IMG/VR virus record: IMGVR_UViG_3300025137_000048
Coordinates: 1-54,246 of that record
Origin: a virus
Taxonomy: Duplodnaviria; Caudoviricetes
DNA length: 54,246 bases
Direction: 5' to 3' (one strand)
Shown one piece after another: positions 39,029-46,488 of this stretch; the first letter of the stretch is position 1; each line of letters begins with the position of its first letter. The notes below the pieces were generated by a model, which worked only from the letters and a program-made list of their open reading frames with translations, was not told where the DNA came from and ran no database searches. The translations under genes and the position numbers were made by a program.

Positions 39029-39239
39029 TTGTTACCTTAAGTATTAATTCTTTTATTTCTTTTAATTCTGTTTTTAATATATTTATTTCTCTTACAGCAG
39101 ATTTTAAATTATCTTCACTTTGTCTTGCTGATTTAACTCTTGACATATAAAGAAGATAAGCGCTTCTGTCTGAATTAACCACAGCATGTGTTCTTGTATC
39201 TTTAACATAACTTCTATTTTGTTCTACTGTTCTTTTCAT
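39018..39239 (-). CDS. Small coiled-coil hypothetical protein
   Basis: 73 aa, VKDTRTHAVVNSD...EINILKTELKEIKELI; coupled to both neighbours. Confidence 0.65.
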   Translation of the reverse strand: MKRTVEQNRSYVKDTRTHAVVNSDRSAYLLYMSRVKSARQSEDNLKSAVREINILKTELKEIKELILKVTNGS

Positions 39240-40825
39240 TATGTTGCCAATGCGATTGCTCGTAAGTCTGTTATTCTTGGTGGGTATGCTGGATTTGAAC
39301 CAGTCATTACAATCTTAATTGCAAAAGATGTAAACTCACCTAAATCACTTGCTGTAAATTTTTGTTCGCTATAACTTACAGTATAATCTGGACTGTAAGG
39401 TGTTTGTGAACGACTTTCTGAAAATAAGACACCATCGTCTGCTAAACCAGTTGTATTGAAAAATTCATAAGGTATTTCATCAAAAGGTCTACTGTCATCA
39501 ACAAGTCTAATTTTATGAAGAACTTTAATAGCAGAGGTAGGAAAATTATTTGCACTAATTCTTACATCTAATGCTGTTGCTGGATTGTCTAGTAAAATTT
39601 CTTTTGTTAGATATTTTGAATTTGAACTACCACCTGTTGGTTCTGTTTCTGCTTGAAATCCTGTAGTGTTTGAAGAACTTGGATTATCAAGTCTATTTGT
39701 AATAGCAATTAAATTTGTTCTTGCAGTATCAACAACAGGTGATGTATTTTGATTTCCTGTTGACATTTCAATTTTATAAGTTAATGTTTTATTACCAGCA
39801 AAATTTGTTGTTTCATTAATAGGTGAAGCAACTTGTTGTTGTGTTGTGAAATAAAAATTATCATTTGGTGTAATTTCTTTTTCTGTTTGAGCAGTATATG
39901 AAGTTTCTGCACCATGAATAGAACGTTTAGATGTTGTTGTAATTTTGTGTATTACTGTAGCGTCTTCTGGGTGCATATATCCAATCTGAGGTTGTAATAC
40001 TTCAAATGCGACATTTTGCGTAGCAGTTACAGCACTACCACCAATACTACCTGTTGATGTTGCGGTGTCACTCGCTAGAGTAATTGTATAACTATCTAAA
40101 GTAACATTACCAATATCGTGTGTACCATTAATATTACTTCCAGTAATACCATTATATTCTGTTCCATCTACCAATCCTGCAATAGTAACTTTATCTGGTT
40201 TATCACCAGACATACCATGATTATCATGATTAACTTTTATAATTTTTGGATTGTCTCCAAATACTGTACCAGAACCTGCAGTTGCATTTACCTCAATAGG
40301 ATTATTATCTAAAGTATCAGCAGATACAGCACTATTATTAAAAGTAACTGTTCCTGAAGTAAATTTTGTAAACTTTGCTTTTTTTAATGAAAATTTTAAA
40401 TCTTGTAAAGGGGATTCTTGTTGACCTCCAATGTTTTGTGATTTAAATAAAGCACCTACAGCAGGTTGTTCTGAAACTCGTCTTGTTGTGCCTATAATAT
40501 TTTGTCCTAATTCAGAAATATATGTGACATATTTTGTGCTGTTTGAAAAAAGAGTTAATGCATATGTTTGACCACCTTTAAGAAATACAGGTGAATCAAA
40601 TGTAAAAGTAGTTGCTGATGAAGCGTCAGTTGATGTATTAACATCAGCAGCAGCTTTAGTAACTACACTAAATGGTATTATTTTAGAACCAGGTCTACTT
40701 CTAAATGTTTCTAATACTCCAATAGTAATAGGTTGTATTGAATCTTTAGCACTAAAGTACAAATCCAGTGATGTGACAAAACACCCTTCAGCAGTATTAT
40801 TTACAAATGTTTGTGCAATAGCCAT
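39239..40825 (-). CDS. VrlC-like virion protein, C-terminal part encoded as a separate gene
   Basis: Begins AIAQTF...CFVTSLDLYFSAKD, contains TTFTFDSPVFL and GALFKSQN...QDLKF, ends PPRITDLRAIALA; recognised as the C-terminal third of VrlC/DUF4815-type proteins; has its own AAAGGA RBS. Confidence 0.75.
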   Translation of the reverse strand: MAIAQTFVNNTAEGCFVTSLDLYFSAKDSIQPITIGVLETFRSRPGSKIIPFSVVTKAAADVNTSTDASSATTFTFDSPVFLKGGQTYALTLFSNSTKYVTYISELGQNIIGTTRRVSEQPAVGALFKSQNIGGQQESPLQDLKFSLKKAKFTKFTSGTVTFNNSAVSADTLDNNPIEVNATAGSGTVFGDNPKIIKVNHDNHGMSGDKPDKVTIAGLVDGTEYNGITGSNINGTHDIGNVTLDSYTITLASDTATSTGSIGGSAVTATQNVAFEVLQPQIGYMHPEDATVIHKITTTSKRSIHGAETSYTAQTEKEITPNDNFYFTTQQQVASPINETTNFAGNKTLTYKIEMSTGNQNTSPVVDTARTNLIAITNRLDNPSSSNTTGFQAETEPTGGSSNSKYLTKEILLDNPATALDVRISANNFPTSAIKVLHKIRLVDDSRPFDEIPYEFFNTTGLADDGVLFSESRSQTPYSPDYTVSYSEQKFTASDLGEFTSFAIKIVMTGSNPAYPPRITDLRAIALAT

Positions 40826-40826
40826 C

Positions 40827-41303
40827 TTAGTTTCCTTTATTTACTCCGTGTTGTAAATCCCATTGTTCATCATCTTGAAAACACTCTAGGTCTTTTACAT
40901 TATTGTTTAAGTCATTAATAAATGTAGTAACATTACTTTCTGTTTTTTTAAAGCCATGATATTTTTCATATCTTTTATGTAAAGCCTCTTTAGCAGTAAC
41001 GGTATACATTAATTTTTTTCCTTTTTCTTTTGCCATTTCAATTACACTATCAATACATAATTGTAAAGCTTTGTGTGATTTAATGTGACTTATATTTTTA
41101 TCAATCACAGTCCACTCCATAATACAAAATTTTGTTGTGGGGTCTGAGTACAATCCTGTAAAACATATTGGTTTATTATCATTTTCTACTATAATTCCAT
41201 CTTTAGGTAAACAATCTTTTGGCACAATACCAAACTCCCAATCGTTCCACCATTTAACCAATGTTTCATAATCATTATCTCTGTCCCATAGTCTTGCTTT
41301 CAT
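40827..41303 (-). CDS. GNAT-like (putative acyltransferase-fold) protein
   Basis: 158 aa; DYETLVKWW, GIIVENDNKPICFTGLY, CIDSVIEMAKEKGKKLMYT and LHKRYEKYHGF resemble GNAT motifs. Confidence 0.55.
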   Translation of the reverse strand: MKARLWDRDNDYETLVKWWNDWEFGIVPKDCLPKDGIIVENDNKPICFTGLYSDPTTKFCIMEWTVIDKNISHIKSHKALQLCIDSVIEMAKEKGKKLMYTVTAKEALHKRYEKYHGFKKTESNVTTFINDLNNNVKDLECFQDDEQWDLQHGVNKGN

Positions 41304-44300
41304 TATTTAAATACTCCTCAGTTCCTTCAATGTGTACATTTTTTTCCCAATTATCAAAATATTTATCTCCCATTGTTTCTAACATTTTTTGTCCATCTAC
41401 TTCAAAATAATCTGTGAACAATGTATCACCAATTTTTATTCTTCTATTTTGACTACCAAATACATAAACTACATGGTCATCATCACCTAGTGATTTACCA
41501 TGTTTAGAATTTTCTACTCTTACCCAATTATCATCTTCGTTAACCATGTGTGACCCTGCAACCTTAATACCTTTATAATCATAAAGATTATCTATTAAGA
41601 ATTTACCTGTTGCAAATACAAATCCACCAACAGCAACATTATCTTGTAAATCAATTTGTTCTATTGGTTTTGTTGAACCATCCGCCATAGTTACTAAAGT
41701 ACCTGGTAAGAAACAACCACTATTTTTATTATGAGCACCAGTATTTGGTGATGTATCATAACTTACCCACGGTGGAACTTTAGCAGCTTCTTCTCTATTT
41801 TTCAATTGTGCCATATTTCTTACTCTGCTATCATCAGGATCTGGATCAGCATAATCTGGTATACCGTCTCTATCTCTATCTGACGGTTCATCATTATTTC
41901 CACCACGATTGTGATTAGAACTAGAACCAGAACCACTATAATATGTAACTGAATCTGTAACTTCTCTTAAAGAAGTTTCGTCAAGTAATTTTGTTTCTAC
42001 AACATCTGGTACTCTTGTCGCATAAACTGTTTCTTGTTCAGTTACTAATAAACCTTGTGCTCTGTATTTTGCTGAAGCAAATGATTCATTATATTCACCT
42101 GTTCTAAAGTTTGATTGTGAATCTGTAATTTTAAATACTCTTTCACCACATCTCCATTTAGGATTACCGCTTACTGATGGTTTAGGTATTGCAAAAGTTC
42201 CTGATAAAGAACCATTAGCATCTGCTACTAGTTGACCACCAAGTGAACCACCTGTTGGTGTGACATATGCATTAACATCTTGTTCTTCAAAATATGCAAA
42301 ATGATTAGATAATGGTTTTAAACCTGTAACTGTAAATGTAATTGTTTTGGCACGAATAAATGGAACGTATGATAAATCAACAAGCCTTTCACCAAAAGAT
42401 TGATTAACTACTTGTGAAGTTAATTCTCTTTTTAAACCTGTTCTTGTACCAGTTCCTGTTCTACCACTTGTAGTTGTTTTTTGATTACCACTTGATGTTG
42501 ATTCTACAAATGTACCTGTCCAGTTATTTTGCCACTCATTCCAAGTTGATCCTATTCTATGTGAAGGATTAGGAATGTCTTTAATATTATTGTATAATAA
42601 ATCATTATTAACAACTAAGTCTGGTGAAGTTTTTGTATCTTTCCATTCATCAACCTCTGGTGTTAATTTCATGTTACCATAATATTTAAATACAGCAAAC
42701 GGATTAATATTCGTTGTTGTTGTTGCACCTAAATTAGATATGTGTTCAACCTCTGTGTAAGGTAATGTAATTAAATCTCCAGTTTTTTGATAACCTGCTG
42801 ATGTTCTTACAGTATCAGTTGTTGCAAGCTCTGTTAAACCTAATTGATCTGTGTGACATCTTGGTCTTACTACACCATCTTTTAAATCAATAGCACATTG
42901 ATAATCAGCACTTGTTGTATCACCAACATTATGACCCTTGAATGTATCTACTAAGAAACCATTTTTAAATCTATTGAATCCATTAGCGTCAACTATTTCT
43001 AAATTTAATGTTTCTTGTTCTAACAATGATAAACTTGTATAGTATTCTAAATTTTTAATACGACTTTCTAACTTACCAATATCTCTCATAGTATATCGTC
43101 TATTATCAATAGGTGTGATTGTTACATCACTAGTATTAAATGTATAAGCAGGTAATCGTAAATATGCAAGTAACATTGCAGTATCAATTATATCAGGTCG
43201 TTGAGGATCAACAGCAGGTGAACCTTTTGCCTGTTTAAATTGTCCCATTGTTGTTATATAAATTGCGTCTATTCTTGATAAGAAAAATTCAAAGTCTGCT
43301 CTAAAGTTTGTTCCTGGTTTTGGAATATCTACTGATACAGAACCTGTGTTGACAAAGTTTTTAGAACCAATAGTATCTTTTAAATTAAATCCTACAACAT
43401 CACTATCGTCAGCAACTCTAGGTCTAAAATCAATAGCGTCTCTTAATTGTATTGTTTTTTCTTTAACTGGTGAAAAGAATGATGGTATATCTTCGTAATC
43501 AATACCAGAATAACTATCTACTGAAAAATAATCACCAGTACCATGTGAGAAGAAATCAAAATTAATAAGTAATCGACCAGTTGGCGCTTGAGCACCTGGT
43601 TTTATTTTGATTGAACCTATATCATAAAAGTTATCTCTTTGTCCAGTATCTAAATTAAATCTATCTGTAATATCCACATGACTTGTTGTTGCAGCTGTAC
43701 TAAAATCTGGTGCCATAAAGACACTATTCAATGCAGATACATCAGCTTTACCTAAAGAGATAGAACTTGATTGTGCTAATGCTGCTGTTGCTACTGTTGT
43801 AGTAGAACTTGAATTTAATGTTTTTGCTTTTTCGCCAGCAACTGATCTTGTTATTGTTGCTATTAACTTAACTTGTGAACCACCATAGTTAGAACCTAAA
43901 TCAATTGTTAACTGTGTATTTGTTGAACCTCTTGTAAATATTGTTGCACCCTCATGACTGTTTCCAGATAATGTAGTTGTTTCACCAACAGCACCTGCTG
44001 ATGAACCTGCGGTTATATGCATTAATGCATAATCACCTGACGCCAAAGTATCAAAAGATTCGTTTGCACCAGTATTAAATATACCAATACCATCACCAGT
44101 AAGTGTTGCCACAAACTGTCTTCTTATAGTAAACGTAGTATCTGTTAATGCGTCATTATCAGCAGTCTTTAAAGTTTTGACTGTGCTTTCTGGCATATCA
44201 AAAACTAAAGTATTTTCATCTATGTTTTGTAATTTTGTTCTTCGTCTTTCTATTGGTGATGATGTTGTTACATCTAAAGAAAGAGTTGCTGTTGCTAGTG

Positions 44301-46488
44301 TTAAACTTGTATTACTAATAATTGCAGCAACAACACCTGTTAGTGTTTCACCTGTGTTATCTGTAAATACAATTGTATCACCAACAATAAGTTCCGTTGT
44401 AAATTTTGTTCCTAAACCAACAACAGCTGTATCAGTTTCAGCGATAGACATTGTACCAGATAATAATTTTTGTGATTCATCAAAGCCATCTACTGTATTA
44501 GATGTTAATACAGTATCAGCAGTAAATGTTGGTGTGCCTGCTTGATAAACTTGTTTGGTGTTTTTAAAATCGTAAGCTTGAACACTTTTGAACTGATTTG
44601 TGTCAGCAGAAATAACAGCAGTATTAGTTGATGTTCCTCCTGTAATAGTTTCTCCTGCAGCAAAAGTACCTTTTGTATTTGAAACAACAGCGATACCAGT
44701 TGATACTGTACCACCTGAAGTAAATGAACTAAATGATGAAGAATTTACAGCGATTGTAAATTGTGTTGTACTTGCTATAGTTGCTACTGTGAAAGTAGTA
44801 TCATTAATATTAGTCATACCACCAACACCAGTAAAGGTTACTCTTTGTCCTACTGATAATCCGTGAGTTGCACTTGTTGTTACTGTTAATGCACTAGAAC
44901 TTTTTGCTGCCGCAGAAAGTGTTTTTGATACAGAGGTACTTACACTTTCAACGATACCTGTTGCACCTGATGTGCCACCAGTTACTATCTCTCCTGTTGT
45001 AAGTGAGTGTGAGCTATTTGTTCTTAAATGTGTAAATGTGCTTATATTAAATAAACCTAATTTGTAAACTGAACTTGTATTAGAAGCAGAAGCACCAACT
45101 GTTCCAGATTTATATTCAAAAAATCTTGGAAGCGCTATACCAATATCATGTATGTCTGTACCTGCACCAGCATTTTGTGTACCTCTTGTTGCTGTTGCTT
45201 CTTTATATAATCTTACTTCTTTGTATGCTTCAGTTGAACCAGAAATTGTATCAACATCAGGTTGACCATAAATTTTTGTGACATCAACAAAGTTACCTAT
45301 TTGCATACCCACAGTAGTATTGTTTACTGTTTCAAAATCTCTAGCTTTATCTACTGTAACATATTTTGTAGCGATTGTTTCTAATTCATATCCTCCAACG
45401 TATGCCTTACCTACACCCATACCTACAGCCAATCTTGCTTTAGATTGAGCTTCTGTGTAATTAATTTCATATAACGGATTTGCTACTGTTCCGTATTTTA
45501 TTGAATCACCACGATATATACCACGACCAAATTTAGCTACCTCAGAAGCCTCTGAACTAAAATAGTGTTCTCTTATATCAATGTCAAAATTCTGTACAAC
45601 ATAGTTTCCTGATTCGTCAAAAGTTCTACGAGCAAGTGTATCTGCCAATAAATTATAATCTGTTTTAATAACTTTTTCTAAAACGTTACCATTATCAATT
45701 TTCATTAACTCTACAAAATTATCATCATCTGTGGCGTCTAATTCTTTTTTGGTAAGTGTTAATACAATTTTATGTCTGTGAGCACCAGGTGCATTTATAT
45801 TTGTTGATCCAGTTGCATTATCAGTTAATGTTGTATCAGCTTCTGGTGTGACAAAAGTTTCTGTTACTGTCCAACCAACCCTAAAGCTTGGATTAACAAA
45901 ATAAGGTTCGAGTATTAATGTTTGTGCTGAATTTTTTACGAAGAAACCATCTATGTAATATATACCTGCTTCAACATTAATAGCAGAACCAGTACCTATT
46001 GCTGTTGAATCAATAGGTAAAGTAACATTATCAGTTCCCACAGTTGCAGTTTCGCCACTATCACCTGTTAAGGATTCTCCAGCAACGAATCTGTTTATTG
46101 TACCTGTTGTTGCTGTTTTAGTATATTTAAGATATATTGTTGCAGCTTGTGTAGTAGAAGCTTCAGTTGCATTAAGAACTTCCGCTTGAACATTATTTGT
46201 GCCACCAGTAAATACTGTACCAATTAAAGCAGCTGCAGTTGATGTTGATAACGCTGAAAGTTTTGCAAAGTGATATCTATTAGTATAAGATAGTTCACCA
46301 GGAATAACTTGAGCGCCATCTTTAAACATATGGTCACCAAATCGTTTAACTTGGTTTTGTAATATGGATTGAAGTTGTGTTAACTCTCTTGCCTGTACAG
46401 CAAAAGCAGGTCTGAATAAAACTTTATGAAAATTCTTATCTTCAGAAAAATCATCAAAGTAAGGTGAGACGTTAAAATTTGTTGCCAT
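41275..46488 (-). CDS. VrlC-like (DUF4815) virion protein, N-terminal part, with C-terminal Hint domain
   Basis: TNFNVSPYFDDF...VLFRPAFAVQARELTQLQSILQNQV, LARRTFDESGNY, RRYTMRDIGKLESRIKNLEYYTSLSLLE and RFKNGFLVDTF; Hint starts at G|CFLPGTLVTMADG (Cys codon 41713-41715). Confidence 0.85.
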   Translation of the reverse strand: MATNFNVSPYFDDFSEDKNFHKVLFRPAFAVQARELTQLQSILQNQVKRFGDHMFKDGAQVIPGELSYTNRYHFAKLSALSTSTAAALIGTVFTGGTNNVQAEVLNATEASTTQAATIYLKYTKTATTGTINRFVAGESLTGDSGETATVGTDNVTLPIDSTAIGTGSAINVEAGIYYIDGFFVKNSAQTLILEPYFVNPSFRVGWTVTETFVTPEADTTLTDNATGSTNINAPGAHRHKIVLTLTKKELDATDDDNFVELMKIDNGNVLEKVIKTDYNLLADTLARRTFDESGNYVVQNFDIDIREHYFSSEASEVAKFGRGIYRGDSIKYGTVANPLYEINYTEAQSKARLAVGMGVGKAYVGGYELETIATKYVTVDKARDFETVNNTTVGMQIGNFVDVTKIYGQPDVDTISGSTEAYKEVRLYKEATATRGTQNAGAGTDIHDIGIALPRFFEYKSGTVGASASNTSSVYKLGLFNISTFTHLRTNSSHSLTTGEIVTGGTSGATGIVESVSTSVSKTLSAAAKSSSALTVTTSATHGLSVGQRVTFTGVGGMTNINDTTFTVATIASTTQFTIAVNSSSFSSFTSGGTVSTGIAVVSNTKGTFAAGETITGGTSTNTAVISADTNQFKSVQAYDFKNTKQVYQAGTPTFTADTVLTSNTVDGFDESQKLLSGTMSIAETDTAVVGLGTKFTTELIVGDTIVFTDNTGETLTGVVAAIISNTSLTLATATLSLDVTTSSPIERRRTKLQNIDENTLVFDMPESTVKTLKTADNDALTDTTFTIRRQFVATLTGDGIGIFNTGANESFDTLASGDYALMHITAGSSAGAVGETTTLSGNSHEGATIFTRGSTNTQLTIDLGSNYGGSQVKLIATITRSVAGEKAKTLNSSSTTTVATAALAQSSSISLGKADVSALNSVFMAPDFSTAATTSHVDITDRFNLDTGQRDNFYDIGSIKIKPGAQAPTGRLLINFDFFSHGTGDYFSVDSYSGIDYEDIPSFFSPVKEKTIQLRDAIDFRPRVADDSDVVGFNLKDTIGSKNFVNTGSVSVDIPKPGTNFRADFEFFLSRIDAIYITTMGQFKQAKGSPAVDPQRPDIIDTAMLLAYLRLPAYTFNTSDVTITPIDNRRYTMRDIGKLESRIKNLEYYTSLSLLEQETLNLEIVDANGFNRFKNGFLVDTFKGHNVGDTTSADYQCAIDLKDGVVRPRCHTDQLGLTELATTDTVRTSAGYQKTGDLITLPYTEVEHISNLGATTTTNINPFAVFKYYGNMKLTPEVDEWKDTKTSPDLVVNNDLLYNNIKDIPNPSHRIGSTWNEWQNNWTGTFVESTSSGNQKTTTSGRTGTGTRTGLKRELTSQVVNQSFGERLVDLSYVPFIRAKTITFTVTGLKPLSNHFAYFEEQDVNAYVTPTGGSLGGQLVADANGSLSGTFAIPKPSVSGNPKWRCGERVFKITDSQSNFRTGEYNESFASAKYRAQGLLVTEQETVYATRVPDVVETKLLDETSLREVTDSVTYYSGSGSSSNHNRGGNNDEPSDRDRDGIPDYADPDPDDSRVRNMAQLKNREEAAKVPPWVSYDTSPNTGAHNKNSGCFLPGTLVTMADGSTKPIEQIDLQDNVAVGGFVFATGKFLIDNLYDYKGIKVAGSHMVNEDDNWVRVENSKHGKSLGDDDHVVYVFGSQNRRIKIGDTLFTDYFEVDGQKMLETMGDKYFDNWEKNVHIEGTEEYLNNESKTMGQR

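Follow-up and report, generated by a model that had tools for sequence, protein, structure and literature searches.

Protein splicing and Hedgehog lipidation are both driven by Hint domains. In Hedgehog proteins, which also carry a sterol region, the Hint domain cuts at a Gly|Cys-Phe junction and the upstream protein is passed to a nucleophile. Related bacterial intein-like (BIL) domains are described in the passages of PMC4031507 devoted to them: type A domains end in an intein-like His-Asn without a +1 nucleophile, and their resolution or ligation is proposed to proceed through a free α-amine, while type B domains lack any resemblance to block G of inteins and have cleavage uncoupled from splicing. 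The corresponding part of PMC8616854 reports that BIL2 uses its thioester to attach an upstream ubiquitin-like domain to lysine amines through an isopeptide bond, without ATP. Here we analysed a 54,246-base stretch of viral DNA, hereafter the window (IMG/VR record IMGVR_UViG_3300025137_000048, estimated completeness 38%), in which the baseplate protein VrlC is encoded in two parts; the first part ends in a predicted Hint domain and a gene for a GNAT-fold protein lies between the two. VrlC is presented in PMC7029224 as a core protein of pelagimyophages that apparently replaces T4 gp7 in a two-layered baseplate, and inteins and acetyltransferases both go unmentioned in that paper. A search of open-access papers and preprints returned no paper on a Hint and GNAT pair or on a Hint domain in VrlC. 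With moderate confidence, we read the arrangement as a mobile C-terminal Hint cap with its partner enzyme, placed on the already two-gene VrlC of a pelagimyophage-like phage; the Hint would release itself and the GNAT-fold protein would act on that reaction.

The three open reading frames (ORFs) of the locus are present on the minus strand with the coordinates and lengths of the original prediction (Table 1). The 1737-residue product of the first one matches Pfam DUF4815 (PF16075, E 1.3e-58) and positions 4-1241 of phrog_358 (1241.8 bits), and the 528-residue product of the third one matches the last 294 positions of the same family (1762-2055, E 4e-130). Compared with the single 2001-residue VrlC of phage HTVC008M, the N part aligns from residue 1 with 51% identity and its homology to VrlC fades at about residue 1518. 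The C part aligns with residues 1479-2000 at 54% identity, from its own third residue, so that the mapping of the breakpoint against an intact VrlC, which had been proposed as a check, places the start of this alignment inside the DPLAQTF motif. As judged from these matches, the two parts together are a VrlC/DUF4815 baseplate protein, and they jointly cover phrog_358. The ATG of the GNAT gene lies 29 nt inside the 3' end of the 1737-residue ORF and that of the C part 1 nt past the GNAT stop codon. Shine-Dalgarno-like sequences, GAGGAG and AAGGAA, are found upstream of these two starts, including the ribosome-binding site already attributed to the 528-residue gene. The three genes are translationally coupled.

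The terminal domain of the N part was modelled with AlphaFold2 from an alignment of 28 family members (A3). The Hint core is predicted with block-mean pLDDT (predicted local distance difference test) values of 94-98 at model residues 41-130 and 85-96 in the remaining core, and it is followed by tail helices at model residues 138-159 (81-96). The top match of this model to the PDB in Foldseek is BIL2 of the Tetrahymena BUBL1 locus (6y75, E 6.7e-5); further matches are a class 3 split intein, the C. thermocellum BIL domain 2lwy, gp41-1, Vint, DnaB and DnaE inteins and Hedgehog (1at0). Except for one row of probability 0.06, the list consists of Hint-superfamily entries throughout. The structure search that had been suggested for this domain therefore confirms the Hint fold at the level of the model, on which the domain is a true Hint with an invariant Cys1 and an invariant block-B His. 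Indeed, Cys1592 (Cys1), His1647 in block B and the motif FTDYF at residues 1691-1695 are conserved in 28/28 aligned sequences. The family alignment has Thr-Asp at the position of the intein His-Asn and is devoid of intein block G. In the window the core ends with FTDYFE and is followed by a 41-residue tail and the stop codon, leaving no C-extein; the tail pattern EQ..L...GD.YF.NW is conserved in the family. The translation contains the motifs on which the original prediction was built (SG|CFLPGTLVTMADG, VAGSH, VYVF, FTDYFE and Cys1592), and the succession of a low-complexity linker and a Hint-like end without terminal His-Asn or C-extein was correctly recognized there. A homing endonuclease and a C-intein on the downstream fragment were looked for and neither is present, the intervening gene encoding a predicted GNAT fold and the C part being VrlC. 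As far as its residues indicate, the Hint is complete and has kept those required for the first step, and it cannot splice by the intein route because there is no terminal Asn, no +1 nucleophile and no C-intein on the next gene.

The family can be compared on this basis with the known Hint systems. It has the Hint fold, Cys1 and the lack of a +1 nucleophile in common with BIL domains (2lwy ranks sixth in Foldseek); in both cases cleavage rather than splicing is expected, and both occur in variable surface-type proteins. In contrast to BIL domains, it always stands at the very C-terminus with no C-flank, is nearly confined to viruses and has an obligate GNAT neighbour. It differs from type A in having Thr-Asp instead of His-Asn, followed by the invariant FTDYF and the helical tail. 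The missing block G fits type B. BIL2 (6y75/6tmm), the best structural match, offers a model for the capture of a Gly-ended protein by an amine. BIL2 nevertheless retains a terminal Asn (the solved entry is the C1A-N143A mutant), has a C-flank, is eukaryotic and has no GNAT partner, and identity is 15-17%. The Hedgehog Hog domain (1at0, 6tyy) is likewise a terminal Hint with an extra C-terminal region behind the core, but it is a weak structural match (rank 27, E 0.022), its Pfam score is below the cut-off, and no sterol or other defined acceptor is in evidence at our locus. Class 1 mini-inteins and split inteins (gp41-1 6qaz, AceL NrdHF 6zgq, Npu DnaE) share the fold, Cys1, the block-B His and the phage setting; unlike them, the window Hint has no terminal Asn and no +1 Cys, Ser or Thr, a C-intein is missing from the next gene, and a homing endonuclease is absent. 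By these features the family Hint would act like a BIL- or Hog-type autoprocessing cap, and it falls outside the splicing inteins and the type A BIL domains and stays below the Pfam Hedgehog threshold.

We determined the extent of this family by a HMMER scan of 1.84 billion representatives (clusters at 50% identity), which gave 1455 clusters at E ≤ 1e-3, including 608 at E ≤ 1e-10. The match to the Hint profile is long in 145 of the best 150 representatives and ends at a median of 1 residue from the protein C-terminus. Among these 150, one partial match has more than 60 residues behind it, and no fusion of the Hint to the GNAT or to the VrlC C part was found. Gly precedes Cys1 in 49 of 53 distinct junctions and accounts for 54% of the twelve residues ahead of it; the family junction reads Gly|Cys-Phe, and the domain behind it closes virion proteins of unrelated kinds at their extreme C-terminus. 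The length of the carriers varies from about 200 to 1800 residues; among them are VrlC N parts, lytic-transglycosylase-domain proteins and many proteins without a family. Single-linkage clustering sorted them into 8 families, and since upstream Hints and low-complexity runs that they share make this procedure merge unrelated proteins, we speak only of several types of carrier. A pattern scan of one genome for each of 185,579 prokaryote species gave a single match, on a contig of a metagenome-assembled genome (MAG), and none came from tblastn with the Hint region on 50,697 records of cultured phages. As delineated by these searches, the Hint family is large, unannotated and almost confined to viruses.

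The lone match in the prokaryote collection (L247, NHDJ01000025.1) is a 15-kb contig of a Verrucomicrobia MAG; judged by its size and content, it is probably a phage contig binned into this MAG. Hints in tandem occur in L012:431-6082, L021, L028, L033, L058 and L066 and in protein P0119, which has three in a row. In these carriers a canonical-looking Hint ending in VVHN-K(G) directly precedes the Cys1 of the family Hint, and the upstream copy matches Pfam Hom_end_hint, Hint, Vint and Hint_2. Short carriers, with 136-264 residues ahead of the Hint, are found in L019, L025, L034, L045, L054, L069 and 18 similar loci; they have a hydrophobic glycine-zipper run (GGPxGGVIGGxIGG) abutting the Gly|Cys junction and a weak C19orf12-like Pfam match.

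The 158-residue protein encoded between the two VrlC parts was modelled with AlphaFold2 from an alignment of 26 homologues (A2). The model has a pLDDT of 92.1 and the order of elements of a GNAT (β1-α1-β2-4-α3-β5-α4-β6). Foldseek returned 325 PDB matches at E ≤ 1e-3, with TM-scores of about 0.6-0.65 and 5e96 at the top (E 1.2e-6); the PDB rows listed are acetyltransferases, including AAC(6')-Ii, RimI-type enzymes and Ard1. At the same threshold, 73 viral matches were obtained in BFVD, the first being an N-acetyltransferase-domain protein (E 2.3e-12). Model and searches agree with the original prediction that this protein is a GNAT fold. It has this fold in common with the N-acetyltransferases AAC(6')-Ii (5e96), RimI-type (4j3g) and Ard1/NatA (4pv6), and its family differs from known GNATs by a pyrophosphate loop for coenzyme A (CoA) that looks non-canonical on inspection, an invariant Cys47 and a Hint-linked C-terminal extension. 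Tyr112 and Glu122 are also invariant in the family alignment; the invariant Tyr in helix α4 sits where many GNATs keep their general acid and may play that role. The C-terminal extension, with a conserved L-x-W, is present in all 26 aligned Hint-linked GNATs and missing from Hint-less homologues of Flavobacteriia phages. Two of the latter, gp113 of Cellulophaga phage phi46:3 (L084:5001-5411) and gp71 of Tenacibaculum phage Gundel_1 (L085:4974-5384), keep Cys47 and are without the extension; they could be a tractable comparison system in cultured phages.

A Hint relative is encoded by 124 IMG/VR stretches, the best 80 of which underlie our locus counts. A GNAT ORF (P0002-like) lies downstream on the same strand in 76/80 Hint loci, and in the four others (L014, L022, L026, L042) the contig breaks off no more than about 600 nt from the Hint ORF, so that the co-occurrence of both domains in other phage loci, suggested earlier as a test, is well established. 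Of 77 cases including the window, 44 have an 11-nt overlap of the GNAT start with the Hint stop and 9 have one of 29 nt, and the GNAT lies about 1.2 kb downstream in 11. No P0002-like ORF was found on the VrlC strand of 81 Hint-less VrlC loci. In a set of 79 distant VrlC loci (P0111 group), a GNAT homologue occurs in 2, which are exactly the 2 with a Hint. The linkage between Hint and GNAT, with its conserved dual-coding overlap, is thus strict. In 11 loci (L015:6416-7652, and likewise L016-L018, L029, L031, L061, L063-L065 and L068), two more enzyme genes are found between the Hint ORF and the GNAT, with all starts overlapping. The first is Asp/Asn β-hydroxylase-like (PF05118, E 3e-10), and the second encodes a short-chain dehydrogenase (PF00106, E 2e-8). 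Such loci may represent a larger protein-modification set.

VrlC is usually a single polypeptide, as the original prediction stated: of 81 related IMG/VR loci, 75 have one gene running through the junction and 3 have a split one, the remaining 3 being left unassigned. The nearest relatives of the C part, at 58-61% identity, are L086 and L087, retrieved by a single-protein IMG/VR search, and L088, retrieved by a profile scan. All three have a two-gene VrlC with the identical split codon. Their C parts start with MAVYQTF, MALGQTF and MAIAQTF, MA-x-x-QTF being common to these and the window, and neither Hint nor GNAT was found in any of the three loci. The N part of L088 (1489 residues) ends 6 nt ahead of the C part, that of L086 (1557 residues) in a low-complexity tail, and that of L087 (1634 residues) in a different domain of about 125 residues. 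The split is therefore shared with the nearest relatives at the identical codon, independently of any insertion. The end domain of L087 (L087:7297-8001, plus strand), located where the window has its Hint, is rich in Cys at its beginning; neither Pfam nor PHROG has a family for it, and viral clusters alone are shown for it in the protein atlas (score 0.94).

In the P0111 group, 25 of the 79 loci are cut by contig ends; the 54 informative ones comprise 37 fused forms, 15 split without the module and 2 split with it. Such cassette-less splits make the junction before DPLAQTF a place where VrlC splits repeatedly on its own. The module is also carried by L012, a close relative with a split VrlC, which has two tandem Hints and a GNAT, with a linker like that of the window ahead of its Hints, and by the very distant VrlCs of L076 and L078. 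The C parts of the latter begin 12 residues earlier, which makes theirs a separate split; when close relatives were sought for the L076 C part, its own contig alone was returned. Most of the other carriers have a gene of no relation to themselves behind the GNAT, a portal gene in L080 and a tail-fibre gene elsewhere, so that the module is not in general a gene splitter. We also computed a quick maximum-likelihood tree of 21 N parts (window, L012, L086, L087, L088, L076, L078 and 14 chosen fused forms, with about 60 further fused loci left out), for which support is given as SH-aLRT (Shimodaira-Hasegawa-like approximate likelihood ratio test) values only. The window groups with L012 (100) and both with L088 (99), L086 and L087 group separately (100), and these two subclades meet the HTVC008M-type fused clade in one open fork.

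These results bear on the part of the original prediction that did not hold. It had the cassette entering a variable loop of an intact VrlC gene and thereby causing the split, but L086, L087 and L088 are split at the same codon without a cassette, which is an outcome that the prediction had itself named as refuting it; 15/54 distant loci are likewise split at the junction, and the genes that follow the module elsewhere are mostly unrelated. What stood of the overall interpretation is the Hint fold, the GNAT fold and their co-occurrence. An insertion could still account for the data if the split relatives had lost the cassette later, which we consider unlikely. The cassette does sit at the junction in at least three VrlC lineages with differing C-part starts (window/L012, L076/L078 and L167/L168), most VrlC genes are fused (75/81, and 37/54 informative), and the N-part tails of L086 and L088 carry the low-complexity stretch that precedes the window linker. 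Against these points, the three relatives that have the exact split codon and no cassette are the nearest ones, the quick tree demands at least two losses where the alternative demands one gain, the 15 distant splits show that the junction splits on its own, and elsewhere the module lies at natural gene ends, for instance ahead of the portal gene. On the simplest reading, it is the C-terminal ends of proteins to which the module attaches, and in VrlC such an end is available just where it is already two genes.

The gene order could also suggest enzyme-assisted ligation in trans, the N-terminal amine of the C part attacking the Hint thioester of the N part with the help of the GNAT so that full-length VrlC is rebuilt. 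Genes that follow one another as N-Hint, GNAT and C part, and that overlap or stand 1 nt apart, would suit this scheme, and chemical precedents are found in the α-amine ligation proposed for type A BIL domains and in the isopeptide bond of BIL2 (in the parts of PMC4031507 and PMC8616854 cited above). It is, however, highly improbable in our view: the nearest relatives manage as two genes without Hint or GNAT, and what comes next in other carriers is a gene for a portal or a tail fibre instead of a missing half. Nearly all listed genes behind the GNAT start with Met-Ala or Met-Ser, but Met-Ala starts are common in the background (172/437 ORFs), and we dropped this start as a clue to an N-terminal acceptor.

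The favoured reading of a mobile Hint cap with its partner enzyme can be formulated as follows. The module consists of an acidic or Gly-rich linker and a complete non-splicing Hint with its helical tail, then the translationally coupled GNAT gene. In uncultured marine phages, several virion proteins that are unrelated to one another are capped by the same module at their C-termini. At Gly1591|Cys1592, an N-to-S acyl shift would give a Gly-Cys thioester, the resolution of which would free the VrlC N part from the Hint with a C-terminal Gly. We infer that the Hint probably forms this thioester and releases itself in this way, and that the GNAT probably acts on the Hint reaction rather than being a mere unrelated neighbour. 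Two activities can be envisaged for it. It could pass the thioester-activated C-terminus to an amine, or it could put an acetyl group on the Cys1 amine once this is free, so that the shift could no longer run backwards. The normal acyl donor of GNATs is a thioester, acyl-CoA, and it is for this reason that a thioester-making Hint with a dedicated GNAT is suggestive. More tentatively, the two may form an ATP-independent activation and transfer pair for particle proteins, linking a C-terminus to an amine of a virion protein, a lipid or the host envelope, or leaving an acetyl-locked Cys1 thioester as a reactive warhead through which covalent attachment could take place; we regard this as possible but doubtful.

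Several observations weigh against the favoured reading. Pfam detects block A alone in the terminal domain, with Hom_end_hint (E 5.8e-4) and the Hedgehog Hint PF01079 (E 0.038, 14 bits for a cut-off of 29.7) both below their cut-offs, so that a family match is not reached. A phmmer search of the Hint against PDB sequences also matched block A alone, in PI-SceI (E 0.055), and NCBIfam gave zero matches for the Hint-carrying protein and for the 158-residue protein. At the block-B S/T-x-x-H position the window has Ala where most family members have Ser. Pfam and NCBIfam acetyltransferase models do not match the 158-residue protein, and by inspection of the family alignment the site of its CoA loop reads (H/F/Y)-(K/R)-(A/G/C) instead of the usual Q/R-x-x-G-x-G/A. 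GNATs of about 30% identity stand beside structural genes without any Hint in phi46:3 and Gundel_1. The Hint of L004 is 66-73% identical to that of the window and its GNAT only 30%. Finally, the three-subclade fork of the quick tree does not settle whether the split or the cassette came first.

Some of these points would suit a Hint that is catalytically dead and whose sole service to the baseplate protein is that of an end domain with a structural or adhesive role: the detection of block A alone and the Ala in block B, to which can be added Thr-Asp in place of His-Asn and the lack of a +1 nucleophile. We hold this to be very unlikely, given that Cys1 and the block-B His are invariant in 28/28 sequences and Gly precedes Cys1 in 49/53 junctions, the pattern expected of first-step chemistry and not of a decayed domain. 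Others would suit a GNAT that is a passenger, cargo with its own acetyl-CoA-dependent target in host or phage, next to a Hint that merely removes itself so that late genes can carry the cassette at their 3' end, with no chemical link between them. The Hint-less homologues of the cultured Flavobacteriia phages, the discordant identities of Hint and GNAT and the two other enzyme genes between them in 11 loci all point that way. Set against this are the 76/80 co-occurrence with its conserved dual-coding 11-nt overlap and the C-terminal extension, which every one of the 26 aligned Hint-linked GNATs has and which the Hint-less relatives lack; moreover, cargo at a gene end would need no Hint. We find the passenger scheme improbable.

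The module genes are set in a T4-type baseplate module on the minus strand, whose features are collected in Table 1. The gene order agrees with that of the Pelagibacter phages HTVC008M and Mosig, in which VrlC is a single gene of 2001 and 2045 residues. The VrlC N part of the window contains an E1_FCCH-like domain (window 44701-44892, minus strand; PF16190, E 2e-11, residues 533-596), which is also present in L012; in pairwise alignment the HTVC008M VrlC has no counterpart to that stretch. The module region (window 41000-41750) has the lowest G+C of the stretch, about 0.30 as compared with 0.32-0.37 in the VrlC N part, and a strongly negative GC skew (-0.40).

Table 1. Coordinates of the two-part VrlC locus, its Hint and GNAT module and the neighbouring genes in the window.
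Feature	Positions in the window	Strand	Basis or remark
Wedge-type structural protein, 1009 aa	47924-50953	-	gene upstream in the baseplate module
Baseplate wedge subunit, 463 aa	46498-47889	-	gene just before the VrlC N-part ORF
ORF 1, 1737 aa: VrlC N part, acidic linker and terminal predicted Hint domain	41275-46488	-	
VrlC (DUF4815) N part, residues 1-~1518, baseplate protein	41935..46488	-	PF16075, phrog_358, HTVC008M alignment
Low-complexity acidic linker (DGIPD..DPDPDD), residues ~1519-1591, last residue Gly1591	41716..41934	-	translation; pLDDT <50
Predicted core of the Hint fold from Cys1592 through FTDYFE (residues 1592-1696), with Gly1591|Cys1592 as the putative scissile bond	41401..41715	-	AlphaFold2, Foldseek
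Helical tail behind the Hint core, residues 1697-1737, conserved; last 29 nt common with the GNAT start	41278..41400	-	
Gene of the 158-aa predicted GNAT-fold partner (phrog_17252), in translational coupling with the Hint ORF	40827..41303	-	AlphaFold2, Foldseek, BFVD
VrlC C part, 528 aa, start MAIAQTF within the family motif DPLAQTF	39239..40825	-	phrog_358, HTVC008M alignment
73-aa virion protein and tail-fibre-like genes	downstream of the three genes	-	gene order

The relatives of VrlC provide a comparison set in which the protein is fused, split and bare, split with another end domain, or split with one or two Hints and a GNAT. This series indicates that VrlC can do without the module, which is an optional addition and is not required for joining the two halves again. 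The module has its relatives among the known Hint systems, with a chemistry that is potentially new. With its obligate GNAT-fold partner, this large and virus-restricted Hint family would represent a new way to process a Hint thioester. If the GNAT uses this thioester, the pair would provide virion proteins with a compact chemistry for ligation or capping and would be a possible protein-engineering tool, and it would bear on the maturation of the baseplates and ejection proteins of marine phages.

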